Virus record (IMG/VR): IMGVR_UViG_3300026549_002494
Coordinates: 72,468 to 136,467 of that record
Direction: 5' to 3' (one strand)
Length of the DNA stretch: 64,000 bases
From: a virus
Lineage: Duplodnaviria > Heunggongvirae > Uroviricota > Caudoviricetes
The translations under genes and the position numbers were made by a program. Below are positions 3,053 through 44,002 of this stretch, piece by piece. The notes below the pieces were generated by a model that worked only from the letters and a program-made list of their open reading frames with translations, had not been told where the DNA came from and made no database searches. The first letter of the stretch is position 1. Every line of letters begins with the position of its first letter.

Positions 3053-3100
3053 ATACTCAAAGTTAAAAACAAAACAGAGAATATAATCAAAGAAATATTT

Positions 3101-3328
3101 TTGATTAGAAAGGGAAACAAAATTATGAGCTATACAGAAGCAATTATGACTATAGTAAGATATGGAAAAGAATTTCAAGCAATCGAAGAATTACTTGGAT
3201 TTGTTAAAAGAAAAAATGAAAAAATTGAAAAAGATAATGCAACAAAATCTTCATGCTTAAGGGCAATTAAAAAGATTAATCAACAAAAAAATAGTGCAAT
3301 TGATGCACTGTGTGATTGGGAGGGATAG
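3101..3328 (+). CDS. hypothetical small protein (true start probably ATG at 3125)
   Basis: ORF downstream of the AGAGAATATAAT motif at 3076. Basic C-terminal half. Confidence 0.3.
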   Translation: MIRKGNKIMSYTEAIMTIVRYGKEFQAIEELLGFVKRKNEKIEKDNATKSSCLRAIKKINQQKNSAIDALCDWEG

Positions 3329-3588
3329 AAATGAAATTATCTTATGGTTATAATTATGATGAACTGTTACATTACATAAGAAAGTTTGCTATAGACAATG
3401 ATTGGGAAGATGAAAATGTACCAGAGCAAATAAGAGCATTCTTTACAACTTGGGCGTTTTTGTTTCACGTAGATGCTGACACTCGTAGTTGTACGCAGAC
3501 TTTATTTGCAATTTATACATTAGCAGGTCTTGATGAGATAATTAGTTATGATGACTTTGAACATTTCATGGTTAAATTAATAGTATAA
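3316..3588 (+). CDS. hypothetical protein
   Basis: 90-aa ORF overlapping the previous stop. Confidence 0.35.
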   Translation: MGGIEMKLSYGYNYDELLHYIRKFAIDNDWEDENVPEQIRAFFTTWAFLFHVDADTRSCTQTLFAIYTLAGLDEIISYDDFEHFMVKLIV

Positions 3589-3705
3589 GAAGATATGGTC
3601 GCATACGATACCGGCGACTTGGAATGGGACGCGATTAAAAAAGTAATGGTGAGAGTATAAAAGATTTGATATTTTAAAAGTATAGATAAGGAGGAAAAAT
3701 AACTT

Positions 3706-3987
3706 ATGTACACAGATAAAAAATACACAATGATAGTTACACAGGAAGATTGGCGCTACCCAAGGGAAGTGCAGATTAGCTTCTTTGCGGAACAGCCTTG
3801 GGAAGGTGAGTTAAGTGATATAGTCTTTGGGGATAACGTAGATGAATTATCAGAAAGCAGTGATGGACATCCTAATGAGGGTCTTTTCTATATACTTTAT
3901 GCAAACAATAGCGGTGAGCGGATTGGGTATGGTGTAATTCACTGGGACACCATTCAGAAGAATATTGATGACTATGAAAAATATTAA
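3706..3987 (+). CDS. hypothetical protein
   Basis: 93-aa ORF with AAGGAGG RBS 8 nt upstream of the ATG. Confidence 0.4.
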   Translation: MYTDKKYTMIVTQEDWRYPREVQISFFAEQPWEGELSDIVFGDNVDELSESSDGHPNEGLFYILYANNSGERIGYGVIHWDTIQKNIDDYEKY

Positions 3988-4049
3988 CACAGTGAATTTG
4001 CGTTTATATCCGCAATAATTTCTCGCAGGAAAGAGTGTTACGGATAAGA

Positions 4050-4481
4050 TTAAAGTTGTTGTAAACTTTTCAACACAATATCAATTCGAGCCATTATATT
4101 GTCAACAGTTTTCTTAGACAATCCGTTATATAATGGGCGCAACTTAAAGAGATCCGTCATAATTATAGTAGCAAACGCATTTGCGTCTATTTCGGCAATC
4201 TGATTATTATAAGCTTCAACTTCAATTTCGTCGGAAGTTTTATAATTTGCAAAATATTCATTATAGTTATTACGAATTTGCCATACATGACGTAACTCAT
4301 GAGCAATAGCGAACACATCATCTGGATTGGATAGAATAATGTGACGTAAATATATAGTCGTCCCATCAGAACTACATTGAGCAAGTGTCGTTTTAGTAGG
4401 GAAATGGGATATATCATAAGATATATCGGGTGGTGTGATTTTTAAAATTTCACAAACATTTTTTATATATTCATTAATCAT
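4050..4481 (-). CDS. ImmA/IrrE-family Zn metallopeptidase-like protein
   Basis: HExxH motif (AIAHELRHVWQ). Size and minus-strand orientation typical of ImmA-like anti-repressor peptidases. Confidence 0.5.
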   Translation of the reverse strand: MINEYIKNVCEILKITPPDISYDISHFPTKTTLAQCSSDGTTIYLRHIILSNPDDVFAIAHELRHVWQIRNNYNEYFANYKTSDEIEVEAYNNQIAEIDANAFATIIMTDLFKLRPLYNGLSKKTVDNIMARIDIVLKSLQQL

Positions 4482-4742
4482 GATAAAAATCCTTTCTTAG
4501 TCTATGCTTATTATAGCAGAGAAAGCTTATAAAATCAAGACGAGGGTGTGATGTGATATTATGCAGTGTGAAGGAATTGCTTGACGGTAAACATAAAATA
4601 TGTTATTCTAAAATAAAAAAAGGAGAATAACTATTATGGGAAGTAAAGAAGCAAATGACAACAAGAAAGACACAGGTAAGAATATTACATTTGAGTCAGA
4701 GTCTGAAAAAGCAAAGAAAAAACCTAAAAAGGAGTAAAGGAT

Positions 4743-5372: not shown

Positions 5373-5543
5373 AATAACTCAAAATATTTATAGACTCATA
5401 TAAAAAGGAATTGCTTGATAACAAGAAAAAAATTATGTGATAATAGAGAGAAATGCGTGAGAAATATGTAAAAATAAAGGAACAAAAGTTAAAAGGTCAA
5501 AAAACAAAAAAACACAAATCAATAAAAAAAGGAGATAACCAAA

Positions 5544-6041: not shown

Positions 6042-6051
6042 TAAGGGGGTT

Positions 6052-7062
6052 ATGAAAATGTCTGGAAGAATTGAACATCGGTTAAAGACAGAACAAACAA
6101 TTAGTAGACTTTTAAATAATATGCCAGAATGTATGGTAGAATATTATTATAATTTATCATCAAAGAGAGAGATAAAAACTTGCGAAGAATATATTAGAAA
6201 GGTGAGAAAATTTTTATTGTACGTAAATTCAGATCCCATTCAAATTGATTGGCGACAAATAAATGAAACAGATATAGCAAAATATTTTAAACATATTGAA
6301 ACTAAAATAATGAAAGATGGGAAAATGGCTAATACGAGTTTTTCTTTTAGAAAAGAAAATTATACAGCCTTGAATAGTTTTTTTAAATATTTATATAAAA
6401 AAGGATATATACCCCATAACCCTGTGGAATTTATTGATCGTCCAACTAAAAAAGATTCTGTTAGTAGAAAATTTATGACAGAAGATGATTTATCAAAAAT
6501 AATCAAAACAGTTAAATGCGGAGCTGGCTCAAGTCGTGCGATTGCAAGGCAAGACAATTGGTGGACAAGGGATTTAGCAATTATTTTAATGTTTATAACA
6601 ACCGGAATGCGTAAAACTGCCTTATCAGAAATTGATATTAATGATATTAATTTTACCACAAATGAGATTCGTGTAGTAGACAAAGAACACGAAACTCATA
6701 CATTTAATATGCCTAATATTCTAACAGATGCTTTGATAGATTGGATGTACCAAAGAGAAAAAATATTGCAAGGAACAGATGTTGCTCCACTGTTTATATC
6801 CAATCGTTTAAAAAGAATGTCTCCTGACAGTATATCATTATTAGTAAAGAAATATACAATAGAAGCATTAGGTGAACCCTTTTCACCACATAAAATCAGA
6901 GCGGCTTTTGCAAATATTATGTTAGAACATACAGGGAATATAAAGATTGTAGCGGATGCATTAAGACATAAACAGATAGAAACAACTAAAATATATCTTA
7001 ACAATGATGAAAAGAAAGTCAATAAAAAGACAGTGGATATAATGAATAGTATTTTTAAGTGA
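6052..7062 (+). CDS. int: tyrosine recombinase / phage integrase
   Basis: Catalytic-domain motifs: GMRKTAL (Arg), HKIRAAF (H-x-x-R), ALRHKQIETTKIYL (terminal Tyr). N-terminal SAM-like domain. Confidence 0.8.
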   Translation: MKMSGRIEHRLKTEQTISRLLNNMPECMVEYYYNLSSKREIKTCEEYIRKVRKFLLYVNSDPIQIDWRQINETDIAKYFKHIETKIMKDGKMANTSFSFRKENYTALNSFFKYLYKKGYIPHNPVEFIDRPTKKDSVSRKFMTEDDLSKIIKTVKCGAGSSRAIARQDNWWTRDLAIILMFITTGMRKTALSEIDINDINFTTNEIRVVDKEHETHTFNMPNILTDALIDWMYQREKILQGTDVAPLFISNRLKRMSPDSISLLVKKYTIEALGEPFSPHKIRAAFANIMLEHTGNIKIVADALRHKQIETTKIYLNNDEKKVNKKTVDIMNSIFK

Positions 7063-7110: not shown

Positions 7111-7139
7111 TTGACAAAATAATAAATATAGTATATAAT
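7111..7139 (+). promoter_or_regulatory. perfect sigma-70 consensus promoter TTGACA-N17-TATAAT
   Basis: TTGACA at 7111-7116, 17-nt spacer, TATAAT at 7134-7139. Confidence 0.6.
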
Positions 7140-7145
7140 AAAAGA

Positions 7146-7232
7146 CGAATAGGGGATCAATAGACGATTGATTTCCCTCTGTGATAATTAAAAGACTAAC
7201 CACACATTGGGAAGGGCGGTTAGTCTTTTTTT
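7146..7232 (+). ncRNA. candidate ~85-nt small RNA (consensus promoter, two hairpins, intrinsic terminator)
   Basis: Sits between the promoter above and a 10-bp stem terminator aagactaacc/ggttagtctt plus T7 at 7191-7232. Internal hairpin GGGATCAAT/ATTGATTTCCC. No ORF with RBS. Confidence 0.4.
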
Positions 7233-7507
7233 GTTATTAAAAATTTGATAACAAATGCCAATGATTGCAAATATCAAACTTGTATATAAGAACAAATTTT
7301 CATATGTAACCATAACATTCCCCCTCTCCGAGGGAAAAAATTCAACGTGATTCCTTATTCGTCCTTTATTATTATATATCTAAAAGCTGTTTTGTCAAGA
7401 AATATTAAATTTGACATTATATCTATTGAATATCAGTCAAATATATGATAAAATGTATACAAATAAGTGAACCCTTATAAATAATATAAAAAAAGGAGTA
7501 AATTAAA

Positions 7508-9809: not shown

Positions 9810-9919
9810 AAATAACAAAACTGTGGGATTGTACTTGTATAGACACACCCTGCATATAGTGGGAGTTATGTATTTTTGCATAGCTCCTTCACTCTTATTA
9901 ATAAAGAAATAATTTCACA

Positions 9920-19027: not shown

Positions 19028-19873
19028 TTGAAAGAAAAATACATAAAGAGTCCTATAAATTATATAGGCAATAAATACAAACTTATTAGTCAGATTATTC
19101 CGTTATTTCCTGATGAAATCAGCATGTTCGTTGATGTATTTGGTGGTTCAGGAACGGTTTTGATTAATACAAAAGCAGAACATTATATGTATAACGACAT
19201 AAATCCATATGTGTCAAGTATTTTTGAAGGTCTTGTAACAGAAGATACAGATGCAGTAGTAAAGAAAATAGAAGATATTATTACAGAGTATTCACTTAGC
19301 AAAACTAATAAAGAAGGATTTGAGAGACTTCGTGATGACTACAATGCCGGAAAAAACGACTGGATTACACTCTATACATTGATGTGCCACTCATTTAATC
19401 ATCAATTCAGATTCAATAATAACCATCAATATAATAGCAGCTTTGGTAAAAATCGAAGTTATTTTTCAGACAGACAGAAAGAAGACTTATATGCAATGAA
19501 GAAAAATATCAGTACAGATGTTGTATTCTCATCAAAAAGTTTTGTTGACATTGATTACTCAGACTTTGACGAACACGACTTGTTGTATTTTGATCCGCCT
19601 TATTTTGCATCTGTTGGCAATTACAATGATGGCAAAAGAGGATTTGAAGGTTGGACAGAAGAACATGAAAAGAAACTATTAGAATTATTGGACAAGTTAG
19701 ATGAACAAGAAACAAGGTGGGCTTTATCAAATAATTTGAAGTATGACAATCCGTTTTTAGATGAATGGAAAGATAAATATAAGATTCATTATTTGAATGG
19801 CGATTACGTGAACTGTAATTATCACAAAATTGACAGAAGTAAAGATGTGGAAGTATTGATTACAAATTACTAA
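19028..19873 (+). CDS. N6-adenine DNA methyltransferase, Dam-like (alpha class)
   Basis: N-terminal FxGxG (VDVFGGSGTV). C-terminal DPPY (LLYFDPPYF). TTG start. Conserved structured leader with uORF. Confidence 0.75.
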   Translation: MKEKYIKSPINYIGNKYKLISQIIPLFPDEISMFVDVFGGSGTVLINTKAEHYMYNDINPYVSSIFEGLVTEDTDAVVKKIEDIITEYSLSKTNKEGFERLRDDYNAGKNDWITLYTLMCHSFNHQFRFNNNHQYNSSFGKNRSYFSDRQKEDLYAMKKNISTDVVFSSKSFVDIDYSDFDEHDLLYFDPPYFASVGNYNDGKRGFEGWTEEHEKKLLELLDKLDEQETRWALSNNLKYDNPFLDEWKDKYKIHYLNGDYVNCNYHKIDRSKDVEVLITNY

Positions 19874-19963: not shown

Positions 19964-19975
19964 AGAGAATAAATA
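19964..19975 (+). promoter_or_regulatory. AGAGAATA(W)ATA recurrent upstream motif (one of 10 copies)
   Basis: Core AGAGAATA or GGAGAATA at 3076, 10226, 14438, 19964, 25097, 31078, 31978, 33025, 36673, 43894. Variant TAGAATAAA at 18964. Always intergenic and 30-130 nt upstream of a + strand gene. Confidence 0.45.
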
Positions 19976-20048
19976 AATACAAGAATAAAACAGAAAGGAA
20001 TAAAGGCGTTGCAACCGTAAGAGATATCTACCTTTCTGGTGAAGAAAA

Positions 20049-20762
20049 ATTAAATACGTTGGTAGTAAAGCAAGAGTTTCAAAAGATATTAGTAAAATTA
20101 TCAATGAAATTATCAAAAAAGAGAATATTAAAATATACATAGAGCCATTTGTTGGTGGCTCAAATATGATTGAACACATTGAATGTGAAAATAAATATGG
20201 TTATGACAATAATGAGTATTTGATTGAATTTTGGAAACAAATACAAAGCGGCTGGAATCCGTTTGATGATGTTGACATGACTAAAGATTTTTATTCTGAA
20301 GTCAAGGATAATAAAGAGGGTTATCCAAAACATATCGTAGCTTTGTGTGGTTTATGTGCTACATACAATGCCAAGTGGTTTGGTGGTTATGCAGGAATTG
20401 TACATACGAAAATGGGAACTGATAGAAACTACTATGATGAAGCAGTCAGAAATGTTTTAAAACAGAGAAACAATATTATGGATGTTATTTACGATTGCAA
20501 GTCTTATGAGGATATTGAAATCGAAGGAGCGTTGATTTATTGTGACCCTCCATATGAGGGAACAACAAAGTATAAAGATGATTTTGCCCACAAGACATAT
20601 TGGGATTGGGTTAGAAAGATGAGTAAGAAAAATATTGTACTTTGTAGCGAATATAACGCACCTGAAGACTTTGAATGTATTTGGACAAAGGAATTAACAA
20701 CTACTTTGGATAAGGCAAGTCGTAGTAAAGCGGTAGAAAAATTATTTAAGTACAATGGATAA
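20049..20762 (+). CDS. Dam-like N6-adenine DNA methyltransferase paralog lacking a canonical start codon (possible ATT start or decaying copy)
   Basis: The frame is open from 20043 and encodes motif I IEPFVGGSN upstream of the first ATG (20166). DPPY at CDPPYEG. About 70% identical to the 31160 protein. The aligned start codon ATG of the paralog is ATT here. Confidence 0.5.
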   Translation: MKYVGSKARVSKDISKIINEIIKKENIKIYIEPFVGGSNMIEHIECENKYGYDNNEYLIEFWKQIQSGWNPFDDVDMTKDFYSEVKDNKEGYPKHIVALCGLCATYNAKWFGGYAGIVHTKMGTDRNYYDEAVRNVLKQRNNIMDVIYDCKSYEDIEIEGALIYCDPPYEGTTKYKDDFAHKTYWDWVRKMSKKNIVLCSEYNAPEDFECIWTKELTTTLDKASRSKAVEKLFKYNG

Positions 20763-25066: not shown

Positions 25067-25104
25067 TGGAATTTGAGTTTAATTGACAAATAAGAAAGAG
25101 AATA

Positions 25105-25440
25105 TCTAAATAGACGGTTCCGCTAAGCTCCAGTCATTTCGATGGCAAAGAAATGCAGTGATTGTGGCGCAGATTAAATCGTGAGCAGTTAAGGGTCCAC
25201 AGCCGTCACAAGGTGCTATCTTTACATAATAGTTAAATGTCCAGTAAGGCTAAGGTGCTATGGTGCTCACATAGACCGACAGAGGAAACAGCCTAATATT
25301 TTATATGGGATAGCAACTCAAATGGCAGAGGAATTGGTAAACCTCAGACGCAGAAAGCTTCCAATTTATATTAAAAATTATGAGCAGGAGAATGTAAATG
25401 ATTTTTGTCGATATTAAAAATATCAAGAATAACGATGAAA
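25105..25440 (+). ncRNA. candidate structured non-coding RNA (GC-rich island inside the RNA-repair cassette)
   Basis: About 340 nt with no RBS-bearing ORF. GC about 45% against a 32% background. Upstream TTGACA (25083) plus an AGAGAATA motif (25097). Internal repeats AAGGTGCTAT x2. Confidence 0.25.
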
Positions 25441-25524
25441 ATAAATTTTCAATGGAGAATAAATAAACATAACTAAATACGAAAGGAGTATGAGTGCCGG
25501 CTTAATCTCATGAGGCTCTGAGTA

Positions 25525-26262
25525 GTGAATTTGAAAGGAAACAAAATTGGTGAAGAGCATCTGATTTTTAATGAAAACGCAATGGATGTTCTTGATTTTA
25601 TGATTAACAAGGGCAAGAAAGTTGATATGATTTTCACAGACCCACCTTATAAAATAACTTCCCGTGGTAATGGCGGAAATTCCGGTGGAATGTTCCAAAA
25701 GAAAGAAGTTAATAACGGAAAGGTTTTTTCGGTCAATAATTTAGAAATAGAAGATTGGCTACCTAAATTTTTTGAAGTCTTAAAAGACGATTCTCATTGT
25801 TATATTATGACCAACAACAAAAATATCACGCATTATCTTGATGTTATAAACAAGTCCGATTTTCATTTTGTCAAATGTCTCATATGGGTTAAAGATAATA
25901 AGATTATGGGTCAGTCCTATATGAGTCAATTCGAGTACATAATTATGCTCCGCAAAGGTTCTCATAAGAGAATTAATAATTGCGGAACAAGTGATGTTTT
26001 ACAGATTCCAAACAAAAAATTAAAGGGTGAAGATGGGAAAACCATTCACGACACCGAAAAACCAGTAATGCTTACGGATATTCTCGTTGAAAATTCATCA
26101 AATGAGGGAGACACAATTTTGGATCCGTTTATGGGTATTGGTGGATGTGGTGTAAGTGCGGCAAAGTTAAAACGAAAATTCATTGGTTGTGAATTGGAGA
26201 ATAGATATTATGATGTCTCCCAGCAGAGAATTAACGATGCAGTAGGAGAGAACTGCTATTAA
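25525..26262 (+). CDS. beta-class N6A/N4C DNA methyltransferase
   Basis: N-terminal FTDPPY, C-terminal DPFMGIGGCG (FxGxG). GTG start. Leader homologous to that of the 19028 gene. Confidence 0.7.
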   Translation: MNLKGNKIGEEHLIFNENAMDVLDFMINKGKKVDMIFTDPPYKITSRGNGGNSGGMFQKKEVNNGKVFSVNNLEIEDWLPKFFEVLKDDSHCYIMTNNKNITHYLDVINKSDFHFVKCLIWVKDNKIMGQSYMSQFEYIIMLRKGSHKRINNCGTSDVLQIPNKKLKGEDGKTIHDTEKPVMLTDILVENSSNEGDTILDPFMGIGGCGVSAAKLKRKFIGCELENRYYDVSQQRINDAVGENCY

Positions 26263-30488: not shown

Positions 30489-30719
30489 ATGACACGAGAT
30501 TTTCTTGGTAACGAGATTAAAGTAGGCGACAAAGTTGTTGCTATGAGATATAGAGGAACATCCGCACTTTTGTATGAGGGAATTGTAGAAAAAGTCTCTC
30601 CTAAAACTGTTTGTGTTAGGAAGAAATACAAGGGGTATGACTGGGGAATGCATGATGTTATGAGAGTTGATTCTGGGAAAGTTGTTGTTATAAATGATAT
30701 AGCAATAAAGGAAGAATAA
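30489..30719 (+). CDS. hypothetical protein
   Basis: 76-aa ORF. Confidence 0.35.
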   Translation: MTRDFLGNEIKVGDKVVAMRYRGTSALLYEGIVEKVSPKTVCVRKKYKGYDWGMHDVMRVDSGKVVVINDIAIKEE

Positions 30720-30720: not shown

Positions 30721-31086
30721 ATGAGTAAAGAAAAGACAATGAAACTTTACGCAGTTAGAGATAAAAGCACAGGTAAATTTGTAAGCGACATAACAAATCC
30801 AAGACATAAGTTTTGGGAGAAGAAAGGCTCTTGTGAATCTGCCATTAAGTCATACAGTCCTTCAAGAGTTACGCCGGGTAGTCATAGAACAAAAAGAAAC
30901 AAGGAATATTTAGAACTTGTTGAACTGACTTGTGTAGACAGCAATTACATAATTGATGATATTGGCTATGTTTCTGACTGGTATCAAAGTAGCATCGATG
31001 ATACAAAACCGCCTGTATGGACAGACGAGCATATTGAAGAATTGTTGAAAGATTTTATCTTAATTCCGAGAACGGATGGAGAATAA
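30721..31086 (+). CDS. hypothetical protein
   Basis: 121-aa ORF. Confidence 0.35.
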   Translation: MSKEKTMKLYAVRDKSTGKFVSDITNPRHKFWEKKGSCESAIKSYSPSRVTPGSHRTKRNKEYLELVELTCVDSNYIIDDIGYVSDWYQSSIDDTKPPVWTDEHIEELLKDFILIPRTDGE

Positions 31087-31159
31087 TTAAATATAAGAAT
31101 AAAACAGAAAGGAATAAAGTGTAGCTACTGTAAACCATATGGACTTTCTGGTGAAGTAA

Positions 31160-31909
31160 TTGAAATACATGGGAAGTAAAAGTCGGATTGCGAAACATAT
31201 CGTGCCGATTATACAAAAGTATATAGATGAAAATAGTATTACTACATACATTGAACCCTTTGTAGGCGGTGCTAATGTAATTGATAAGATTAAATGCGAA
31301 AACAAGCTCGGCTCAGACTTGAACAGATATTTGATTGCGTTGCTGAGACACGTAAGAGATGGTAATGATTTATATGAAGGTGTGCCAAAAGATCTTTACG
31401 ACAAGGCGAGAACGGCATTTAACAACGGAGACACTTTTGAATTTGAGGATTGGGAGATTGGAAATATTGGGTTTATCGCATCATATAACGGCAGGTGGTT
31501 TGACGGCGGTTATGCAAAGCCGGGATATGAAAAGACCAAGAACGGTGAAAGGTATAGAGACTATTATCGTGAAGCAAAGGATAACCTTATGGAACAAGCA
31601 CCTAATCTAAAAGGTATACGGTTTATACACGAAGATTACCGAAGTTATGAGCCTAACGGATGTTTAATATACTGCGACCCACCATATGCAAATTCAAAGC
31701 AGTATGCTAATGCGACCAAGTTTAACTATGATGAATTTTGGAACACGATGAGAGAGTGGTCAAAAGATAACATAGTTCTTATTAGTGAACAAATCGCACC
31801 TGATGATTTTGAATGCATATGGGAAAAAGAATTGACAACGACACTTGATAAGAATAGTAGAAGTTCGGCCGTTGAAAAACTATTCGTGTACAAATCACAC
31901 AATATATAG
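31160..31909 (+). CDS. Dam-like N6-adenine DNA methyltransferase
   Basis: N-terminal MKYMGSKSR and IEPFVGGAN (motif I). DPPY at CDPPYAN. Preceded by a 6-codon uORF MDFLVK. Confidence 0.75.
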   Translation: MKYMGSKSRIAKHIVPIIQKYIDENSITTYIEPFVGGANVIDKIKCENKLGSDLNRYLIALLRHVRDGNDLYEGVPKDLYDKARTAFNNGDTFEFEDWEIGNIGFIASYNGRWFDGGYAKPGYEKTKNGERYRDYYREAKDNLMEQAPNLKGIRFIHEDYRSYEPNGCLIYCDPPYANSKQYANATKFNYDEFWNTMREWSKDNIVLISEQIAPDDFECIWEKELTTTLDKNSRSSAVEKLFVYKSHNI

Positions 31910-32005
31910 TATTAATACATTAAAACAAACACAATATACAGTATTGAGTTTTCAATGAAACTTTTGTTTCATTGAACAGAGAATAATATAATAAACGCAG
32001 TAGTT

Positions 32006-32995
32006 GTGAAAATAAAGGAGGATGAAAAATTATTGAATAACGGATTAAATGTTTTAAGCCTATGTGACGGCATGAGCTGTGGACACATCGCATTAGACAA
32101 AGCTGGATATACAATAAACAAATATTTTGCGGCGGAAATTAAGGACATTGCTATCAAAGTAACAAAAGATAATTATCCAAACACAATTTATATTGGAGAT
32201 GTGAATAAAGTTACATATAAAGATGGGGTACTACATACAGAGACTGGAGATTTTAAGATAAAAATTGATATTGTAATGTTCGGAAGTCCATGTCAGAGTT
32301 TTTCCAGAGCAATGATTAAAGAAAAAAAGATTGGACTTGAAGATCCTAAGCGTTCTGGGTTATTTTATGAGTGCAATAGAGTTTTAAGAGAAGTCAACCC
32401 AAAATATTTCCTTATGGAAAATGTAGTAATGAAGTCAGACGATGAAAAAATTATCAGTGACATGATGGGGGTGCATCCAATTAGGATCAATTCTTCTCTA
32501 ATAACGGCACAGCTAAGAGATAGATATTATTGGACTAATATTCCAAATGTTTCAATTCCGGAAAATAAAAATATTACATTACAAGATGTTTTACTTGATG
32601 GTTATGTTCCGAATGAAAAAGCTAAGTGTTTGTGCAAAAACGACTCTCATGGATATTATAACGGTTGTAATTGGACACCAATTAAAAGATTTCATAGATT
32701 TTGGTATAAATCATTTGGCACTATGGTATTTCCTTCAAAAGAATATTTTGATAACTGCATAGAAATAACAAAGAGGATATTGGACGGTAGAAAATCTTCT
32801 GCAAAATTGTATGATGATTATATTGGACATGATTTTGATAACGCAAGATATTTGTGGAAAGAAGAAAGGGCAAGACTGCAATCTGTACCAGAAGGATATG
32901 TAAAAAACTTATCCGAAAAAGAAGCGGCTGATGTACTGGGAGATGGATGGACTGTTGATGTAATTGCTCATATACTTAGTTTTATGGAGTTTTGA
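32006..32995 (+). CDS. C5-cytosine DNA methyltransferase (Dcm-like)
   Basis: Motif I-like LSLCDGMSCG. PCQ motif FGSPCQSFSRA. ENV. Probable true start TTG at 32033, 11 nt after AAAGGAGGA. Confidence 0.7.
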   Translation: MKIKEDEKLLNNGLNVLSLCDGMSCGHIALDKAGYTINKYFAAEIKDIAIKVTKDNYPNTIYIGDVNKVTYKDGVLHTETGDFKIKIDIVMFGSPCQSFSRAMIKEKKIGLEDPKRSGLFYECNRVLREVNPKYFLMENVVMKSDDEKIISDMMGVHPIRINSSLITAQLRDRYYWTNIPNVSIPENKNITLQDVLLDGYVPNEKAKCLCKNDSHGYYNGCNWTPIKRFHRFWYKSFGTMVFPSKEYFDNCIEITKRILDGRKSSAKLYDDYIGHDFDNARYLWKEERARLQSVPEGYVKNLSEKEAADVLGDGWTVDVIAHILSFMEF

Positions 32996-33133
32996 AAATT
33001 TAATAAGACACTTATTTTATCGAACAGAGAATAAATACATTAAACACAGCAGTTGCAAATGCTGTGAAATAACAGAAAGGAATAAACAGTAACACCGGTT
33101 AAAAAGATTACGTAATCCCTGTAAGGGTATATT

Positions 33134-34627
33134 TTGAAAAAAGAAAAATTAACAGCAAATATTTTATTTTCCGGAATCGGCTGTCAAGAGCGTGGATTCC
33201 AAAATTCTAATCTATTTGATTTAGAGGTCTTAAATACATCTGACATCTGTAAAGAGTCCGTCTTATCCTATGCTGCCATTCATTGTGGACTGACAAATGA
33301 AATGGTAGAAAATTATCCCGATTATCCTTCGAGAGAAGAAATGGCAAAAGAATTAACAGAGATTAATTTAGGTTATGAGCCTGAAAAAGATAAGTGTTTT
33401 GACTGGGCTAAGTTGGTAAAAAGAAAAAATAAAGATCTTGAAAAATATTGGTTGGCAAATAAATTGTCACATAATTTGGGTGATATAAGTAAAATTGAAG
33501 AATTACCGTATGCTGATTTGTGGACTTGCAGTTTTTGTTGTCAGGACATCAGCGTCGCTGGCAAAATGAAAGGCTTAAATCCCGATAGTGGTACTCGCAG
33601 CAGTTTGCTTTGGGAAAATATTCGTCTGCTTAAAAAAGCAAGAGATAATAATATTTCTCCAAAATATATTATGTTTGAAAATGTTAAAAATCTTGTAAGT
33701 AAAAGATTTATAGACGATTTTAATAATTTACTTGAAGTCCTTGATGAACTTGGTTTTAATTCATACTGGAAGGTACTTAATGCAAAAGAATGTGGAGTCC
33801 CACAAAATAGAGAAAGAGTATTTGTTATAAGTATCCGTAAAGATATTGATAAAAATACATTTTACTTTCCGTCACCGTTTGATAACGGATTAAGATTAAA
33901 AGATGTTCTCGAAGAAGTTGTTGATGAGAAATACTATTTATCAGATGATAAAGTTGAGAAGTTTAAGAAGAATTTCAATATTGAAAGCGATAGTGTTACT
34001 ACTCGCAATGCTGACATAGCTTCTTGTATTAGAGCAACTTATTATAAGAATGGTTCAAGAAATATATGTGAAAACATTGAAAATGGGAAAGGTTACGAGG
34101 GTGTAGTTGAAGTTTCTCCTAACAGAGAATATAAAATAGGTAACGTATATAATCCAAAGCATACCGGCGGCAGTTTCGCAGGAAATGTATATGATAAAAG
34201 GGGCTTATGCCCAGCTTTATCTACTATGCAAGGTGGCGGCAGACAGCCTCACGTGGTAACGGGATTAGTTTCTAATAAGGGTGAAAAGTTTGAGAAGCAA
34301 ACAGATTTTGCAAATACTCTTCTTGCAAGAGATTACAAAGGCTTTGGTAATCAGCAAATGAATTGTATAGTTTACACAGATGATATACGAATCCGTAAGC
34401 TTACACCCAGAGAGTGCTATGTTTTGATGGGTCTTACTTTTGAAGATTGTGACAAGGCGGCAGAAATAGGAGTTACGAATACTCATCTTTATAAACAGGC
34501 TGGTAATGGCATTGTTACGAACTGTGTTGAACTTATAGCAGAGCATTTGTATAAAGCACAGTATGATAATACATATGTATGCACCGATGAGAAGATGGCA
34601 AATTTTATGAACTCACAGTCGGAATAA
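33134..34627 (+). CDS. C5-cytosine DNA methyltransferase
   Basis: LFSGIGCQE (motif I), FCCQDISVAG (catalytic Cys region), ENVKNL (motif VI), QAGNG (motif X). TTG start. Confidence 0.7.
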   Translation: MKKEKLTANILFSGIGCQERGFQNSNLFDLEVLNTSDICKESVLSYAAIHCGLTNEMVENYPDYPSREEMAKELTEINLGYEPEKDKCFDWAKLVKRKNKDLEKYWLANKLSHNLGDISKIEELPYADLWTCSFCCQDISVAGKMKGLNPDSGTRSSLLWENIRLLKKARDNNISPKYIMFENVKNLVSKRFIDDFNNLLEVLDELGFNSYWKVLNAKECGVPQNRERVFVISIRKDIDKNTFYFPSPFDNGLRLKDVLEEVVDEKYYLSDDKVEKFKKNFNIESDSVTTRNADIASCIRATYYKNGSRNICENIENGKGYEGVVEVSPNREYKIGNVYNPKHTGGSFAGNVYDKRGLCPALSTMQGGGRQPHVVTGLVSNKGEKFEKQTDFANTLLARDYKGFGNQQMNCIVYTDDIRIRKLTPRECYVLMGLTFEDCDKAAEIGVTNTHLYKQAGNGIVTNCVELIAEHLYKAQYDNTYVCTDEKMANFMNSQSE

Positions 34628-36656: not shown

Positions 36657-36753
36657 AATCTGTCTTTCATTTGGAGAATAAATAATTGTAAATATTAAAA
36701 GAAAGGATAAAAGTTCACGTGAGTAAAGCTGCGCAGCTACTATTGGTGAACAA

Positions 36754-37425
36754 ATGAGTAGTACAAATAGAAGTAATGCGAGAAATGAACATATATCAGA
36801 CTATTATATTACTCCCATTGCAGATATTGAATTATTTCTTGAAAAATTTAACGAGTTTTATCCTCTGGATTGGAAACATTCTAAAATTTTAGATCCTTGT
36901 GCCGGCGGTAATCTTGAAACACGAGATGAACACGGCATTAAAGAGGCGTATCATCCGATGAGTTATTCCACAGCAATACATAATGTGTTCAGAGAGTGTA
37001 ATGTGAACAATATTGATATCCGCTCTGATTCGCTCGCCGAAACAAAAGGTGATTATTTGACTATGGATGTTAAGAAATTTCAGCCTGATATTATAATCAC
37101 GAATCCGCCGTTTAATTTGGCAGTTCCAATAATCGAAAAGGCTATTGAAGATGTGTCGGATAATGGATATGTGATTATGCTACTTAGGCTGAATTTCTTT
37201 GGCAGTCAAAGCAGAGAAGAATTTTTCAAAAAATATATGCCGGAATCCGTATTTGTACACCATATAAGAATTGGTTTTACAGATAAAAAAGACAGTAATG
37301 GGTATACGGTTTTCGATAAAGACGGAAATCCCAGACGCGGAAGTACAGATTCGATTGAGTATATGCATGCGGTTTGGAATAAGAATAATTTGCAGCCGAG
37401 TTATACGAAATTAATATTGATATGA
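36754..37425 (+). CDS. N6-adenine DNA methyltransferase (gamma-class, NPPF)
   Basis: ILDPCAGGN (motif I-like) followed by IIITNPPF (motif IV). Confidence 0.6.
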   Translation: MSSTNRSNARNEHISDYYITPIADIELFLEKFNEFYPLDWKHSKILDPCAGGNLETRDEHGIKEAYHPMSYSTAIHNVFRECNVNNIDIRSDSLAETKGDYLTMDVKKFQPDIIITNPPFNLAVPIIEKAIEDVSDNGYVIMLLRLNFFGSQSREEFFKKYMPESVFVHHIRIGFTDKKDSNGYTVFDKDGNPRRGSTDSIEYMHAVWNKNNLQPSYTKLILI

Positions 37426-38172: not shown

Positions 38173-39390
38173 TTAAACAGCTTTGTAAAGTTGCCCTGTT
38201 TTCTCTAAATGATAAACTAATCGCACAAGTTTCTTGGCAGCATGAGATATAGCGACGTTGTAGTGCTTACCTTCGCCTTGCTTTTTAGCAAGGTATTCAG
38301 CAAAAGATGAATCCCAATGGCAAACATACTTTGTTGCATTAAACAGAGCGTATCTCAAGTATCGGGAACCACGCTTCTCCATATGTGAATAGGTAGAAGT
38401 TAGTTGCCCTGACTGATATGTTGATGGCGATAAACCTGCATAAGCAAGAATTTTATCAGGTGAAGAAAACCTATCAAAATCACCGATTTCAGCGATTATC
38501 ATAGCTCCCATACGATAACTGATGCCGGGAATGCTGAGAATAGGAGAATTAATTTTATCCATTATGGATTTAATAGCTTCTTCAATTTCTTTGATTTCAG
38601 TGTCAAGTTCTTTTATGAGCTTAATGGTATGCTTTAATTCAAGAGATTTGGCAGGCATAACAGAGCCGATAGAGTTTCTTGCAATATCCCGAAAGCGAAT
38701 AGCAGTATCGCGGTTGTATCTGCCTTTTGAGGCTTCATATAGCAGATTCGTTAGTCGCGTAAGGTGAGCTTCAGCAATGTGATGAGCTGACGGAAATTCC
38801 GAGAGCAACGCATAGATAGACTTCATATGTAGAGTTGGAACCGCCTTTTCGAGTTCAGGAAAAAGAATGTTAACAAGTCTTGCGATGGATTGTTTAAGCT
38901 TGGCTCTTTCAGAAACTTTATCAAATCTGTATCTTGTTAGTGACTTTAACTCTTCGTTATGGTACAATGTATTCGAGTAGGACTTTAAGTTCACATCAGA
39001 CATTAACATCATAGCGATAGTATGAGCATCAACCTTATCTGTTTTAGTCTTTCTGAGGGTGAGACTTTTTCGATACAGATTGGTATGTAGTGGATTGATA
39101 ACAAAGGTCGGCAAGCCTTTATCAAGAAGATACCCAAGCAGATTGTATGAGTAATGTCCTGTGGCTTCAAGCCCTACTTTTACTTTGTTCAAATCATCTG
39201 TAACCGATAAAATTTTTTGATAAAGATTATCAAAACCTTCCATTGTGTTTGGAATGGTGAAGGCATTAAAGAGAACTTCACCATCGGAGTTACAAATAAA
39301 GCAGTCATGCTTATCCTTTGCAACATCAATTCCGGCATAAATCATAAAACAACCTCGTTTCAATAGAATTTTGATACTGTTTAGACCCAC
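38173..39390 (-). CDS. IS110-family DEDD transposase
   Basis: N-terminal MIYAGIDVAKDKHD signature. Full-length 405 aa. Probable true start at M of MIYAGID. Confidence 0.8.
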   Translation of the reverse strand: MGLNSIKILLKRGCFMIYAGIDVAKDKHDCFICNSDGEVLFNAFTIPNTMEGFDNLYQKILSVTDDLNKVKVGLEATGHYSYNLLGYLLDKGLPTFVINPLHTNLYRKSLTLRKTKTDKVDAHTIAMMLMSDVNLKSYSNTLYHNEELKSLTRYRFDKVSERAKLKQSIARLVNILFPELEKAVPTLHMKSIYALLSEFPSAHHIAEAHLTRLTNLLYEASKGRYNRDTAIRFRDIARNSIGSVMPAKSLELKHTIKLIKELDTEIKEIEEAIKSIMDKINSPILSIPGISYRMGAMIIAEIGDFDRFSSPDKILAYAGLSPSTYQSGQLTSTYSHMEKRGSRYLRYALFNATKYVCHWDSSFAEYLAKKQGEGKHYNVAISHAAKKLVRLVYHLEKTGQLYKAV

Positions 39391-39570: not shown

Positions 39571-39604
39571 AACTATAAATATATAATACAAGGAGAATAA
39601 ATAT

Positions 39605-39955
39605 ATGGAACCTATTTACCCCACAAGAACAGAGCTAATATCAGCAGATTTAGAAAAACATGACAAAAACGAATACATTCTACATCTTCGTTATAGGGTT
39701 AAAAGTCAATATGGTACAGTCATATACGATATACCAAAGGTATTCTTACCTATAGGCAGTTTCGCTAAGATACTGCATGAAAATGACAAGGTATATTTAA
39801 CCTTTTTTGACGGAACTAAATTACCTCTGGGTTTGAATAAAGAAGGTGTAGCGATTCATATGGTTTCTGAGAAACCAAGTAAAAAAATGACAATTGCCGA
39901 AATTGAGAAAGAACTTGGCTATTCCATAGAAGTTGTTTCAGAGAAGGAGAATTAA
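39605..39955 (+). CDS. hypothetical protein
   Basis: 116-aa ORF, AAGGAG RBS. Confidence 0.4.
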   Translation: MEPIYPTRTELISADLEKHDKNEYILHLRYRVKSQYGTVIYDIPKVFLPIGSFAKILHENDKVYLTFFDGTKLPLGLNKEGVAIHMVSEKPSKKMTIAEIEKELGYSIEVVSEKEN

Positions 39956-40994: not shown

Positions 40995-40998
40995 GCGA

Positions 40999-41590: not shown

Positions 41591-41705
41591 TGTGTATATC
41601 AACAAAAATTAAACAGTTATTTTGTAAACATTCTTTTGAAAAGCATTATATCCCACACGGTTTTAGGATTGTAGATGGTTATATGGTACACGCATTTGAA
41701 TACAA

Positions 41706-42620
41706 ATGTTCAAAATGCGGGAAAACACAGGTGAAAATCACGAAGCAGAAAGACGGTGTGGAGTGATGAATAAAATAAATGTAAATTTGTATGGCGGTAA
41801 AAGTCTATTTGGCGGTAAAGAGTCACCTTTGGAAGCAGATGAAATATACTGTGACAGAGCAGAACAATGTACTTATTACAAAAACAATACCTGCTTGAAT
41901 TGTAGAGATTTCTTAGTCCCCCGTTGCAAATTTGGTAATGTGGTGACTACCAAAGGATATACAAGTCGAGCAAAAAAGTATTTTAGCTTTAAGGGCAAAT
42001 ATCAAAACGATAAAGTATATAACAAACTAAAATATCCTAATGACCGTGTAGCAATTATGGGGGATGAATTGTATATTCGGTATGATTATGGCACGGTGAG
42101 AAAACGCTCCGAACAGGACGAGAAGTGGAGGAAAGATGTTGAGGGGTATATTATATCCACAGATGGTTATAGAAAAAGTGTGTTTATCCCTTTGAATGAA
42201 GTGACGAATAACTTGCTTTTCGCAATTTTTTCTAATGAGCCTCGTACGATGTTTGGTGGAGTAATAGACGATTATCAAAATAAAGTAGTGCCCGATATTA
42301 TACAGACACTTAAAAGAGTTGCACCCGAAATACATAAGAAATTTATTAAGAAATATCCGCAATTTGATAAAGAACCAAATTATATTGGCAGAAAAGTTTA
42401 TGTTAATTCTCTCAAATCAAATACCAAATTTACGGCAAAAAATAAAGAATGGCTTTTTGATGGCGAATATGTTTCTGCTTCTAATATAGATATAGGCAGT
42501 AGTTCTCCGTGGTGGCTGCAAAATGGTGTTTATAGTGATGTAAAAATAAAAGTTAACGATAAAATGACAATAGAGATTAACGATAATTCAATAGTCGATG
42601 AAAATACACGATTTGTATAA
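41706..42620 (+). CDS. hypothetical protein (Cys-rich N-terminus)
   Basis: 304-aa ORF. The likely start is the internal ATG (MNKINVNLYGG). Confidence 0.4.
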   Translation: MFKMRENTGENHEAERRCGVMNKINVNLYGGKSLFGGKESPLEADEIYCDRAEQCTYYKNNTCLNCRDFLVPRCKFGNVVTTKGYTSRAKKYFSFKGKYQNDKVYNKLKYPNDRVAIMGDELYIRYDYGTVRKRSEQDEKWRKDVEGYIISTDGYRKSVFIPLNEVTNNLLFAIFSNEPRTMFGGVIDDYQNKVVPDIIQTLKRVAPEIHKKFIKKYPQFDKEPNYIGRKVYVNSLKSNTKFTAKNKEWLFDGEYVSASNIDIGSSSPWWLQNGVYSDVKIKVNDKMTIEINDNSIVDENTRFV

Positions 42621-42663
42621 ATGTTCGGCAATATTTATGATAACCCCGAATTATTGGAGGTGA

Positions 42664-43032
42664 ATGACAGTGACAGATAATGAAATTGTAAAAGCTTTAA
42701 AATATTGCAAAGAACACAAGGGTATGTGTACAGATGATTGTATATACAGAGCGGTGTATAGGGGAGGTTGTCTCCCAATGTTACAAAAGGATGTTATCAA
42801 TCTCATCAACCGCCAAAAGGCTGAGATTGAGAAATATAAATCGGGAATGATTGCAAATGCCGAGGTAGTAAAAACGTTGACAAATGAACTTAAAACCGCA
42901 AAATCCGAAGCAATAAAAGAGTTTGCGGAACGATTGAAGGAGAGATACGAAAAACATATATTATGCAGTACAAATATACTGAACAATGAAATTGACAACC
43001 TTGTAAAAGAAATGACGGAGGTAGAAAGATGA
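42664..43032 (+). CDS. hypothetical coiled-coil protein
   Basis: 122 aa. The antisense ORF 42651-43175 is rejected as a shadow. Confidence 0.4.
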   Translation: MTVTDNEIVKALKYCKEHKGMCTDDCIYRAVYRGGCLPMLQKDVINLINRQKAEIEKYKSGMIANAEVVKTLTNELKTAKSEAIKEFAERLKERYEKHILCSTNILNNEIDNLVKEMTEVER

Positions 43033-43269
43033 AAATAAAGCAGTGCGACCGGTGTGGTAAAATAATACCCAATAAATGTGCGGATGAAACAAGTGTTGTC
43101 ACATACATAGCATCGAAAGAGGGGTATACATATCTCCCTCGTAACTTTGACTATGCCATGAGTGTTCAAAATCATTTGTAAAATGGCTTAAAGCACTGGG
43201 TAATCTCAATTAAAGAAAACATAATGAGTGATTTTGTAAATTAAGATAAACATTAAGGAGAATTATTAT

Positions 43270-43638
43270 ATGAACTGTACAAATTGTTTGCATTATAATG
43301 CTTGTCTTGGATGGGTAGGAAACGAAGATGAGGAAAGATTTCTCGAAAGCAACTCACCGGAGAAATGTGATTGTTTCGACAATAATGAGCTGTATGTGAA
43401 ATTGCCCTGCAAAAGAGGAGACAGGCTCTATATTGTTCTTAGAGGCACAAATGAAGTGTTAGTTGGAACAGTGAGGAAGTTGACTTTTAGCGATACAAGA
43501 GATATTGTTGTAGACATTGCATATATAAAAAACGGTTACGGAACTACCGGCAATTTCATGAGCAATTCGTTTGGAAAAACCGTATTTTACACAGAACAAG
43601 AAGCGATTGTAGCAGCAAGTAAAGTAGCAAGGAAGTGA
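43270..43638 (+). CDS. hypothetical protein
   Basis: 122-aa ORF. Confidence 0.35.
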   Translation: MNCTNCLHYNACLGWVGNEDEERFLESNSPEKCDCFDNNELYVKLPCKRGDRLYIVLRGTNEVLVGTVRKLTFSDTRDIVVDIAYIKNGYGTTGNFMSNSFGKTVFYTEQEAIVAASKVARK

Positions 43639-43642
43639 TTAT

Positions 43643-43867
43643 ATGAAGTTTTGTTTTGGAGATATTGTAATTGTAGACGATTTTCAAATAGGCGTTATAG
43701 TTAAAAGTTGGTGCGGAACAGAAGAAAACAATTATAACATCTATGTTCGTTCTTATAATGCAATTAAAAATTATAGAGAACCCAGAATTCAACGGTATAT
43801 GGTAAGACACAAATATCTCAGTGAGGAAGAAAAGCAATATCAATATAATGCGATTAACGGATTTTAA
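43643..43867 (+). CDS. hypothetical protein
   Basis: 74-aa ORF. Confidence 0.3.
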   Translation: MKFCFGDIVIVDDFQIGVIVKSWCGTEENNYNIYVRSYNAIKNYREPRIQRYMVRHKYLSEEEKQYQYNAINGF

Positions 43868-44002
43868 AAAGGGATAAAAATTAAATTTCATTTGGAGAAT
43901 ATATATTATGAGAGGTTACGGTGCTTGTATTAAAATACCGTTGGAGTGTCAGAAAAGTGTATGATTTTTGGTGGAATGTTGAGTAAAGGAAGGAGGAGTT
44001 TT

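Follow-up and report, generated by a model that had tools for sequence, protein, structure and literature searches.

A recurrent phage motif as the probable 5′ element of a portable leader cassette for DNA methyltransferase genes

The 64-kb window analyzed here (herein W; positions 72,468 to 136,467 of IMG/VR record IMGVR_UViG_3300026549_002494) is part of a large temperate phage, has a G+C content of ∼33%, and carries nearly all of its genes on the + strand. It contains a recurrent motif, the 12-mer RGAGAATAWATA with the core RGAGAATA, that stands upstream of DNA methyltransferase genes. We find that this motif is very probably the 5′ component of a leader cassette of ∼100 nt that is portable between methyltransferase genes and is present in more than 50 phage or prophage contigs. 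The relatives compared (L-numbers) are IMG/VR contigs of 120 to 250 kb, together with prophage-like stretches in genomes and metagenome-assembled genomes (MAGs), mostly of Lachnospiraceae and other Clostridia and including Roseburia, Kineothrix, and a Eubacterium sp. Their genomes are mosaic, with synteny broken at gene boundaries, and no close relative of the window was found in the phage collection searched. Rfam 15 gave no match at gathering thresholds and nothing relevant at E ≤ 1 for the window or at E ≤ 5 for 31060 to 33150, and no published description of such a methyltransferase leader was found in the literature.

From 5′ to 3′ the leader comprises the motif, an A/T-rich spacer of 26 to 28 nt, the block A(C)AGAAAGGA, a variable core, (CTTTC)TGGTGAA, and 2 to 7 nt before the start codon. 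It includes a second orphan Shine-Dalgarno (SD)-like block, GAAAGGA(G), and its core holds two perfect palindromes of 8 to 12 bp that differ between copies and lie within an enclosing stem. In the modeled stem the orphan SD pairs with the anti-SD-like CCUUUCUG; in other types GUUCAC would pair with the real SD (GUGAAC), or GGAGU with ACUCC. At the 3′ end both the SD (GGUGA or GAGUA) and the start codon (AUU, AUA, or UUG) are weak. Type 1 (at 19964 and 31078) has the outer stem CAGAAAGG/CCUUUCUG, and its SD, GGUGA, abuts the 3′ foot of the stem; in type 2 (36673) GUUCAC is paired with the SD itself, GGUGAAC; type 3 (25454 and 18962) is closed by GGAG.../...CUCU, followed by GAGUA. In a further family, found before a C5-methyltransferase gene (33026), a terminal hairpin sequesters the SD, and members carry different palindromes. 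The distance from motif to GAAAGGA is 26 to 28 nt in four W leaders of three types and 48 nt in a fifth, where 22 nt are an inserted hairpin. Two smaller features that seemed general at first sight were rejected as such: an SD-sequestering mini-hairpin, UCACC/GGUGA, is seen in the commonest type-1 variant only, and mini-open reading frames (ORFs) after the orphan SD (GTG-TAG, TTG-CAA-CCG-TAA) occur in some variants only. With an outer stem that involves or abuts the SD, and with the SD itself predicted to be paired in the type-2 and C5 leaders, the cassette recalls SD-sequestering leaders and riboswitches; it differs from riboswitches in that its core is sequence-variable, so that a conserved ligand pocket is unlikely.

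The individual W leaders, all on the + strand, illustrate this plan. At 19964..19975 the motif AGAGAATAAATA forms the 5′ edge of a type-1 leader, and BLAST homology to other phages begins here; a degenerate second copy, AAGAATAAAA, lies at 19982-19991. In the leader itself (19991..20051) the stem P1 pairs CAGAAAGG (19991-19998) with CCTTTCTG (20031-20038), the palindromes are GTTGCAAC (20008-20015) and AGATATCT (20022-20029), and a weak SD, GGTGA (20038-20042), precedes the apparent ATT start (20049-20051) of a D12-class N6-adenine DNA methyltransferase (IKYVGSK...; 20049..20762, +; PF02086, 5e-12). The second type-1 leader (31105..31162) follows the motif copy GGAGAATAATTA (31078..31089); its P1 is CAGAAAG/CTTTCTG, its palindromes are GTAGCTAC (31121-31128) and CCATATGG (31135-31142), and GGTGA is followed by the TTG start, at 31160, of a D12-class enzyme (LKYMGSK...; 31160..31909, +). 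The type-2 leader (36701..36756) lies behind GGAGAATAAATA (36673..36684), itself preceded by TTTCATTT at 36665, and homology of this region to L031, L012, L015, L026, and L017 starts at 36674. It contains the orphan SD GAAAGGA (36701-36707), GTTCAC (36713-36718) paired with the SD GGTGAAC (36745-36751), the palindromes TCACGTGA (36715-36722) and AGCTGCGCAGCT (36727-36738), and the ATG start (36754) of a small NPPY-type (Dam/EcoRI-methylase-like) methyltransferase (36754..37425, +; sub-threshold Pfam matches), orthologs of which stand behind the same leader in L018.

The remaining leaders are of type 3 or of the C5 family. GGAGAATAAATA with a type-3 leader (25454..25524, +; GAAAGGAG...CTCTGAGTAG; palindromes GCCGGC and CTCATGAG, the latter at 25507-25514) precedes an N6_N4 methyltransferase gene (25525-26262), and the variant AGAATAAACTAA with a type-3-like leader (18962..19027, +; GAAAGGAG...GAAATTTC...CTCTGAGTAA) precedes a D12 methyltransferase gene with a TTG start (19028-19873); a leader homologous to the latter occurs at L012:5580. 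The C5-methyltransferase leader (33026..33133, +; TTG start at 33134) opens with AGAGAATAAATA and contains the 22-nt hairpin (33047-33068), GAAAGGA, ACCGGT, a 12-bp palindrome, GATTACGTAATC (33106-33117), and the hairpin CCCTGTAAGGG, which is predicted to sequester the SD. A second C5 methyltransferase gene (32033-32995) is preceded by a core-only copy, AGAGAATAATATAAT (31978..32032, +), with a normal SD, AAGGAGG, and no palindrome leader.

That the cassette is portable is seen from comparison with the relatives. BLAST searches of motif-bearing intergenic regions against them returned short matches that run from motif to start codon, whatever the flanking genes. The leader at 31078 shares with L080 and L098 a common block (GGAGAATAATT...GGTGAAGTAATTGAAA) that starts with GGAGAATAATTAAATATAAGAATAAA and runs through the leader, and the genes past it encode a D12 enzyme (KYMGSK), an N6_N4 enzyme (ELWHGDC), and a second N6_N4 type, respectively. 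Since the block ends one codon into the gene and both flanks diverge, the motif marks the 5′ edge of the cassette. A search with the type-1 pattern recovered 41 IMG/VR contigs and 10 genuine genome or MAG copies, the hosts being mostly Lachnospiraceae and other Clostridia; a type-1 covariance model found 54 copies at ≥59 bits, then a gap, with the next match at <20 bits. At least five methyltransferase families are represented downstream of leaders of types 1 and 2 (D12, N6_N4, C5, small NPPY/NPPF, and Dam-like). Two non-methyltransferase genes were matched, both by the loose type-3 pattern alone.

The association with methyltransferase genes holds across the clade, as judged from 36 independent methyltransferase upstream regions compared with 360 of other genes with comparable gaps. 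GAAAGGA is present in 39% of the former and 4% of the latter (p = 6e-9) and GAGAATA in 25% and 6% (p = 6e-4), and the density of non-A/T palindromes of ≥8 bp is 0.86 versus 0.20 per 100 nt (p = 1e-8). GAGAATA lies within 70 nt on the 5′ side of the leader in 13 of 28 independent, non-homologous contexts, as against 4.5% of background windows (P = 6e-11).

The cassette is also associated with weak initiation. Among 36 distinct proteins encoded behind leaders, 29 begin at a non-ATG codon (15 TTG, 8 ATT, 5 ATA, and 1 GTG; 7 use ATG). In the window such starts are used by six of the eight methyltransferase genes (starts at 19028, 20049, 20807, 25525, 31160, 32033, 33134, and 36754) versus 11 of 51 other genes (p = 0.005); apparent ATT, ATA, or TTG starts are those at 20049, 31160, 19028, 32033, and 33134. 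The TGA of the SD GGTGA is often an in-frame stop directly 5′ of the methyltransferase start, and at 20049 this stop pins the N terminus to the ATT. Standard gene callers would truncate methyltransferases with ATT, ATA, or TTG starts; the D12 gene that begins at 20049, for example, is called as 20166-20762.

The motif itself was first picked out by a sequence-only reading of the window, which proposed it as a promoter class. Its over-representation and strand bias hold: the exact 12-mer occurs eight times in W, always on the + strand (expected 0.21), and RGAGAATA occurs 30 times, 29 of them on the + strand (expected 8.4). Counted in intergenic DNA after removal of the last 18 nt (the SD zone) of every segment, RGAGAATA has 12 copies on the + strand and one on the − strand (expected 0.52; 23-fold), and 1,000 dinucleotide shuffles gave at most four. 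A link to the methyltransferase battery had also been suggested, and on the clade-wide frequencies above (13 of 28 leader contexts; 25% versus 6% of genes) the motif is indeed a real cis element of these genes. The listed sites stand in part. Five of the ten match the 12-mer (10226, 19964, 33026, 36673, and 43894, the third having been given as 33025); 3076, 14438, 25097, 31078, and 31978 have only the 8-mer core in common, and a site at 18964 has AGAATAA only. Three 12-mer copies (25454, 39592, and 57220) and a core copy (12454) had not been listed. Six sites were said to precede methyltransferase genes, which is essentially right (19964, 31078, 31978, 33026, and 36673, plus 25454 in place of 25097, plus the variant at 18964). 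A subclass with a longer box is real, TTTCATTTGG occurring three times on the + strand (19949, 36665, and 43886) and never on the − strand, as is the pair of identical 17-mers (10227 and 43895). A constant position 30 to 130 nt upstream of a start is not borne out: at 10226 and 43894 an ATG lies 5 nt past the 12-mer and opens an ORF of 17 and 18 codons, respectively, and from 25097 the next gene is 428 nt away, 25454 being the copy proximal to that methyltransferase gene. Nor are all sites strictly intergenic, since the TAA at 31084-31086, within the 31078 copy, is the stop codon of ORF 30721-31086.

The motif has two faces. In the window and close relatives, GGAGAATA lies 0 to 8 nt 5′ of a start codon in 103 of 162 occurrences and AGAGAATA in just 25 of 228, so that the GGAG-type 12-mer is foremost a ribosome-binding site (RBS) of the clade; the same 12-mer is the RBS of gene 39605 and, in relatives, of many genes. 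The 12-mer is thereby shown to be the sequence that this clade prefers for translation initiation, with (G/A)GAG as its purine block and AAUA(A/U)AUA as its spacer. Followed by an ATG it is an ordinary RBS, and plain SD copies stand at 4622, 29606, and 39592 (the last, GGAGAATAAATA at 39592..39603, +, being SD and spacer of gene 39605-39955). The sites listed by the sequence-only reading are mostly orphans with no start at working distance, and those in front of methyltransferase genes do not act as SDs by this measure. A recurrent upstream motif can thus be the orphan form of a clade's consensus RBS rather than a promoter, which calls for caution in similar analyses.

As to what the orphan copies do, our preferred reading, held tentatively, is that the motif works in the RNA and is not a promoter. 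On this view the DNA between 14.4 and 44 kb would be read as long rightward transcripts, the likely origin of which is a perfect sigma-A promoter at 14322..14351 (+; TTGACA-N18-TATAAT). On the + strand, the scans listed nothing terminator-like from 14.5 to 44 kb; the block is therefore readable from 14322, and internal promoters are not needed. The single-stranded motif, purine-rich and then A/U-rich, would fix where each methyltransferase message effectively begins, whether by letting a single-strand endoribonuclease enter or cleave there, by binding 30S subunits, or by both. The orphan SD and outer stem would then serve as a 5′ stabilizer of the STAB-SD or polypurine type, and the weak SD and non-AUG start would throttle translation; the outcome would be long-lived, poorly translated methyltransferase mRNAs under one common control, with the cassette doubling as a homology patch for the swapping of methyltransferase ORFs. 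Hairpins without U-tracts precede several motif copies (e.g., the perfect 10-bp hairpin at 31951-31974, before the 31978 copy), as would be expected if transcripts were processed between a hairpin at one 3′ end and a stabilizer at the next 5′ end.

Such stabilizers have precedents. The STAB-SD of cry3A is an SD-like 5′ untranslated region (UTR) element that starts no translation and blocks RNase J1 (PMC4113751). Polypurine 5′ stabilizers are also described; PMC2358910 (citing Hue et al. 1995) recounts one case in which what had seemed a promoter was in fact a processing site together with a polypurine tract, GAAAGGAAA, and the mature 5′ ends of cry3A and katG are likewise reported to come from processing of a longer transcript (PMC4113751, PMC2358910). 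Like the STAB-SD (GAAAGGAGG), GAAAGGA(G) is an SD-like purine block in the 5′ UTR, complementary to the 3′ end of 16S rRNA, with no start at working distance, lying 50 to 60 nt before the start in leader types 1 to 3; unlike it, the block would in type 1 base-pair with CCUUUCUG, purine blocks come as a tandem pair, and the conserved cassette is larger. Stabilization by GAAAGGA(G) is putative. The T4 RegB/S1 target, GG*AGRAYARAA (PMC3014915), is a second point of comparison: GGAGAATAAAT fits GGAGRAYARAA at 10 of 11 positions, and both are intergenic, SD-like GGAG plus A-rich tracts of early phage mRNA. Here, however, the host is a Firmicute and half of the copies start with AGAG, whereas RegB needs GGAG/U; the resemblance may be nothing more than that both are an SD plus an A-rich spacer.

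Carrying a battery of orphan methyltransferases lets a phage escape many restriction systems simultaneously, and the shared cassette would bring no fewer than five unrelated methyltransferase families under a single logic of orphan SD, stem, weak SD, and weak start. It would also supply homology for exchange of methyltransferase ORFs between phages of gut Clostridia, a searchable signature of anti-restriction methyltransferase cassettes in metagenomes, and a testable model of dosage control.

Several observations weigh against the RNA-level reading or against parts of it. The exact core stands in only 13 of the 28 independent leader contexts, so that the motif appears to be optional, and copies of the AGAG type make poor SDs. 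P1 is invariant in sequence (39 distinct copies with no compensatory and three one-sided G.U changes), and covariation therefore gives no proof of RNA pairing. Compared with shuffles, the leader folds show a modest gain in stability (z = −0.65 to −1.8 for types 1 and 2) or none at all (up to +0.46 for type 3). No RegB-like or other dedicated RNase was recognized among the ∼60 ORFs of the window that were scanned. The core copy at 3076..3087 (AGAGAATATAAT, +) lies 28 nt past a strong + strand intrinsic terminator (3023-3048) and contains a perfect TATAAT, with an ATG 49 nt on at 3125; a promoter is therefore needed there, and this is the most promoter-like of the motif sites. Five sites, moreover, contain AATAAATA, which resembles the −10-only late promoters of phages. 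Lastly, the palindromes are left unexplained by the RNA-level model.

The main rival is accordingly a promoter core of the −10 type, without a −35 box, recognized by host RNA polymerase together with a further phage factor, so that the cassette would be promoter plus leader; we regard this as unlikely. Besides the properties of the 3076 site, it would account for the strand-specific, 23-fold intergenic enrichment, and the conservation starts exactly at the motif with nothing conserved upstream, as a −10-only promoter predicts. The spacing of 26 to 28 nt to the orphan SD, fixed in four W leaders, would put GAAAGGA ∼10 nt from the start site. Precedents for an 8-nt, A/T-rich element with no −35 are the T4-type late promoter TATAAATA (spanning −13 to −6, relatives having A or T at −13; gp55; PMC1524935) and the streptococcal cin-box TACGAATA, a −10-only element read by the small sigma factor SigX (PMC6224593), with which the core shares GAATA. 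AATAAATA is found at 19964, 25454, 33026, 36673, and 39592; the remaining sites depart from it, and the copy at 39592 is simply an RBS. What is invariant in the motif is GAGAATA, not an A/T hexamer, and the identical 12-mer works as an RBS elsewhere. The motif favors methyltransferase genes and is not a general gene-start signal. We found no conserved −35 or other upstream element 5′ of the motif, and TTTCAT, tried as a −35 box, was rejected for its inconsistent spacing to −10-like hexamers. Among the ORFs scanned we recognized neither a phage RNA polymerase nor another transcription factor, a free-standing cognate sigma factor included, nor a system of the gp55/gp33/sliding-clamp type, at which no search was aimed; and internal promoters would be superfluous in a block that shows no + strand terminator from 14.5 to 44 kb.

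A host sigma-A class, one of the alternatives in the sequence-only reading, is contradicted by scoring: the best sigma-A-type score averages 7.8 at 12 motif sites, about that of 407 intergenic background windows (7.3). Perfect 12/12 sigma-A (sigma-70) promoters, TTGACA-N17/18-TATAAT, occur elsewhere, at 7111-7139(+), 7398-7371(−), 10647-10619(−), 10702-10730(+), 11036-11008(−), and 14322-14351(+). These six cluster in 7 kb around the XRE and ImmA genes, with none elsewhere in the 64 kb, and are the true host sigma-A class of the phage. The core copy AGAGAATATTCT (14438..14449, +), 5′ of gene 14501-15037, lies inside the predicted 5′ UTR of the transcript from the last of them. This promoter is flanked by a pair of 35-nt repeats, 80% identical (14236-14270 and 14359-14393), each with a hairpin and then a run of Ts (TTTCTTGCAAGAAA..., AGTTTACTGCAAGAAACTTTTTT); the two together resemble a pair of attenuators or terminators that would gate entry into the rightward operon.

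It is also conceivable, though we think it improbable, that orphan copies have no function and are recombination scars or edges of homology, the consensus RBS having served as microhomology for cassette exchange. Homology blocks do begin at the motif, the genomes are mosaic, and the motif is the RBS consensus; in other phages it stands anywhere between 13 and 53 nt from the leader, and 15 of the 28 contexts lack it. Cassettes of the PeSL type, known mediators of modular shuffling in T4-type phages (PMC2839356, PMC4122927), offer a precedent. Against scars, GAGAATA is invariant between W and the type-2 copies of L031, L015, and L026 while the adjacent spacer has diverged; the motif recurs in 13 non-homologous upstream contexts; and its spacing is fixed in four W leaders of three types. 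PeSLs, by analogy, are the closest published concept to the leader cassette as a whole: both are short, repeated composite cassettes that cluster in a variable region of accessory genes, precede swappable genes, and act as homology patches, and here one cassette stands at the boundary of three different methyltransferase ORFs and recurs in >50 contigs. PeSLs, however, consist of a sigma-70 consensus promoter and a G/C-rich terminator stem-loop, neither of which is present in the cassette (its stems have no U-tract), and the cassette reaches through the 5′ UTR to the start codon, is methyltransferase-specific, and has variable palindromes.

These palindromes are the most unusual part of the cassette. 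All 17 distinct type-1 cores hold exactly two perfect 8-bp palindromes (34 in total versus 1.7 in shuffles, maximum 8). The first appears as GTAGCTAC, GTTGCAAC, GTCGCGAC, GCTGCAGC, GTGCGCAC, or GCAGCTGC, and the second as GACATGTC, GTCATGAC, CCATATGG, TCATATGA, AGATATCT, AGAATTCT, ATGATCAT, or GGAATTCC; the sequence varies and self-complementarity is kept, the lone exception, CCATGTGG, having a single mismatch. By way of control, two palindromes are found in none of the 38 places in unrelated genomes where the flanking pattern is matched by chance. Across the seven window leaders non-A/T palindromes reach 16.5/kb versus 2.1/kb window-wide, and non-homologous methyltransferase leaders (in L126 and other contigs) are likewise palindromic, with 10 to 14 bp. 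Taken together, the leaders of the clade carry one to four perfect, loop-less palindromes of 8 to 14 bp, in ∼20 variants that, with the one exception, are Watson-Crick paired throughout and have no G.T. Palindromes of 8 bases form no stable hairpin, and minimum-free-energy folds leave them unused. One possible function, the target site of the methyltransferase encoded downstream, was rejected: the pair GTAGCTAC + GACATGTC precedes D12, N6_N4, and NPPY genes and the pair GTAGCTAC + CCATATGG both D12 and N6_N4 genes, and because the same pair precedes different families an own-recognition-site model fails.

We give a small probability to the idea that the palindromes are a structure-based rather than a sequence-based sensor. 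Each methyltransferase mRNA might dimerize with itself through its private palindromes in a concentration-dependent manner, which could buffer methyltransferase dosage as the copy number of the phage genome climbs; alternatively, the palindromes might read out DNA methylation or a cruciform state. If true, this would be a new cis-regulatory logic over an anti-restriction methyltransferase battery, and the rule of two palindromes of any sequence could reveal a new regulatory principle.

Very improbable, by contrast, is an operator function at the DNA level for the motif, the palindromes, or both, whether for a C-protein-like controller, for a methyltransferase acting at its own site, or for methylation-sensitive control. 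The palindromes are perfect, loop-less, and free of G.T, like dyad-symmetric duplex sites, and an adjacent pair recalls paired C-boxes. In restriction-modification systems, methyltransferase genes are controlled through C-boxes, own-promoter binding, and promoter methylation, and CfrBI and SsoII autoregulate through their own site or promoter (PMC3874152); dyad symmetry directly 5′ of the genes is common to both cases, as is low and controlled expression, which for the cassette is a prediction. The palindromes differ within one genome, however, with every position variable, so that no single regulator could read them, and they ignore the methyltransferase family. The motif is not palindromic and is strictly strand-specific; there is no C protein and no helix-turn-helix (HTH) gene beside the cassettes; and these are orphan methyltransferases without cognate endonuclease.

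The main idea of the sequence-only reading, that the motif is the promoter class of a phage sigma-70-family protein encoded at 15316-15885 (+), is the least credible of those considered. The 189-amino acid (aa) protein does belong to the sigma-70 family, with a region 2 and a region 4-like segment, and its gene heads the motif-rich block. It is very diverged and falls below all NCBIfam cut-offs. Its sole PDB relative is annotated as sigma-H (E = 8e-5), and the −10 elements of sigma-H/ComX-type factors contain GAAT(A); assignment to the sigma-H family was nevertheless rejected, as NCBIfam scores for SigH, SigI, SigK, and FliA are equally weak. A region-4-bearing sigma factor should need a −35 element, and none is present. 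Moreover, a GmrSD_N domain is fused to, or directly follows, the sigma-like gene in four of four readable contexts (W, L001, L002, and L126). In W the neighbor is a GmrSD_N/DUF262 gene (15918-17444, +); in L001 (9977-12082) and L002 (10001-12073) the sigma-like domain is in one polypeptide with a homolog of that neighbor (E = 1e-45), and in L126 (10001-12206) the two genes overlap, which points to a role within that module. Stand-alone forms of ∼190 aa also exist. The sigma-bearing L001 and L002 show no enrichment of intergenic GAGAATA (6+/2− and 4+/3−), and no sigma homolog was found in motif- or leader-rich relatives within the partial contigs examined. Given the GmrSD_N linkage and the lack of enrichment, the protein is unlikely to be a general factor for the motif; the pair, found just 3′ of the immunity module of the prophage, has the look of a conserved unit of two parts, perhaps for defense or anti-defense, rather than of a developmental sigma factor.

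The scan of ∼60 window ORFs for a trans-acting factor had a single outcome, a sub-threshold match to a "Phage ProQ C-terminal-like domain" (E = 5e-4; 21 bits, the cut-off being 27) in a 76-aa ORF (30489-30719), two genes 5′ of the 31078 cassette. ProQ/FinO proteins bind structured RNAs, and we note this ORF as a weak lead to a trans-factor candidate.

Further copies of the motif lie elsewhere in the window. AGAGAATATATATTATG (10226..10242, +) and GGAGAATATATATTATG (43894..43910, +; preceded by TTTCATTT) are the identical 17-mers and may be the SDs of their 17- and 18-codon ORFs. GGAGAATAATAT (12454..12465, +) lies in the 5′ region of a TnpB-type insertion sequence (IS), 26 nt before the true SD and the ATG at 12492. 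This IS element (12404-13601; TnpB gene 12492-13601) has a subterminal hairpin, TCGCG-CACTCT-CGCGA, and its copy of the core (GGAGAATAATATAT) is probably unrelated to the methyltransferase cassettes. AGAGAATATCTA (25097..25108, +) lies 31 nt past the stop codon of the Pnkp-ligase gene, at the head of a 458-nt noncoding gap (25067-25524) with that gene on one side and methyltransferase, RlaP, and CCA-enzyme genes on the other. By eye the G+C content of the gap is above that of its surroundings; it has no tRNA, no Rfam match, and no counterpart in relatives. Footprinting 3′ of the Pnkp-ligase gene in eight close relatives was defeated by a break in synteny directly past the gene. A structured noncoding RNA at 25105-25455 was considered and found unsupported (fold z = +0.54; no Rfam match, tRNA, or homolog); the gap could be a decayed gene or an unrecognized RNA.

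The setting is that of a temperate phage. An integrase gene (6052-7062) is followed by genes for an XRE repressor and an ImmA-like protease (11151-12268, − strand), and the rightward block after this immunity region contains the sigma-like and GmrSD-like genes, the eight methyltransferase genes, an RNA-repair cluster (Pnkp-ligase, RlaP, and CCA-adding enzyme), and replication genes; an IS110 element lies at 38173-39390. Across the window several 6-bp palindromes are avoided (observed versus expected: CTGCAG 0 vs 6.7; GAGCTC 0 vs 3.7; CCATGG 0 vs 2.7; GGTACC 0 vs 2.7; ATCGAT 2 vs 10; CTTAAG 3 vs 10.7; GAATTC 10 vs 25; GATATC 14 vs 28), and the phage seems to pair restriction-site avoidance with its eight methyltransferases. 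A link between this avoidance and the leader palindromes was rejected, the observed/expected ratios of their 6-mers running from 0 to 1.5 without pattern.

Two of the perfect sigma-A promoters on the − strand have further candidates behind them. A 41-codon ORF at 7188-7346 (−; MVTYENLFLYTSLIFAIIGICYQIFNNKKRLTALPNVWLVF) encodes a hydrophobic helix with KKR after it, coincides in part with a weak BsrG-like Rfam match (22 bits, E = 0.38), and is a candidate type I toxin of the SPbeta-prophage kind. The ∼840-nt noncoding region at 9810-10650 combines the promoter at 10647-10619 (extended TG) with a strong − strand terminator at 10306-10278; the predicted − strand transcript of ∼330 nt has no convincing ORF and is a candidate regulatory RNA beside the immunity region.

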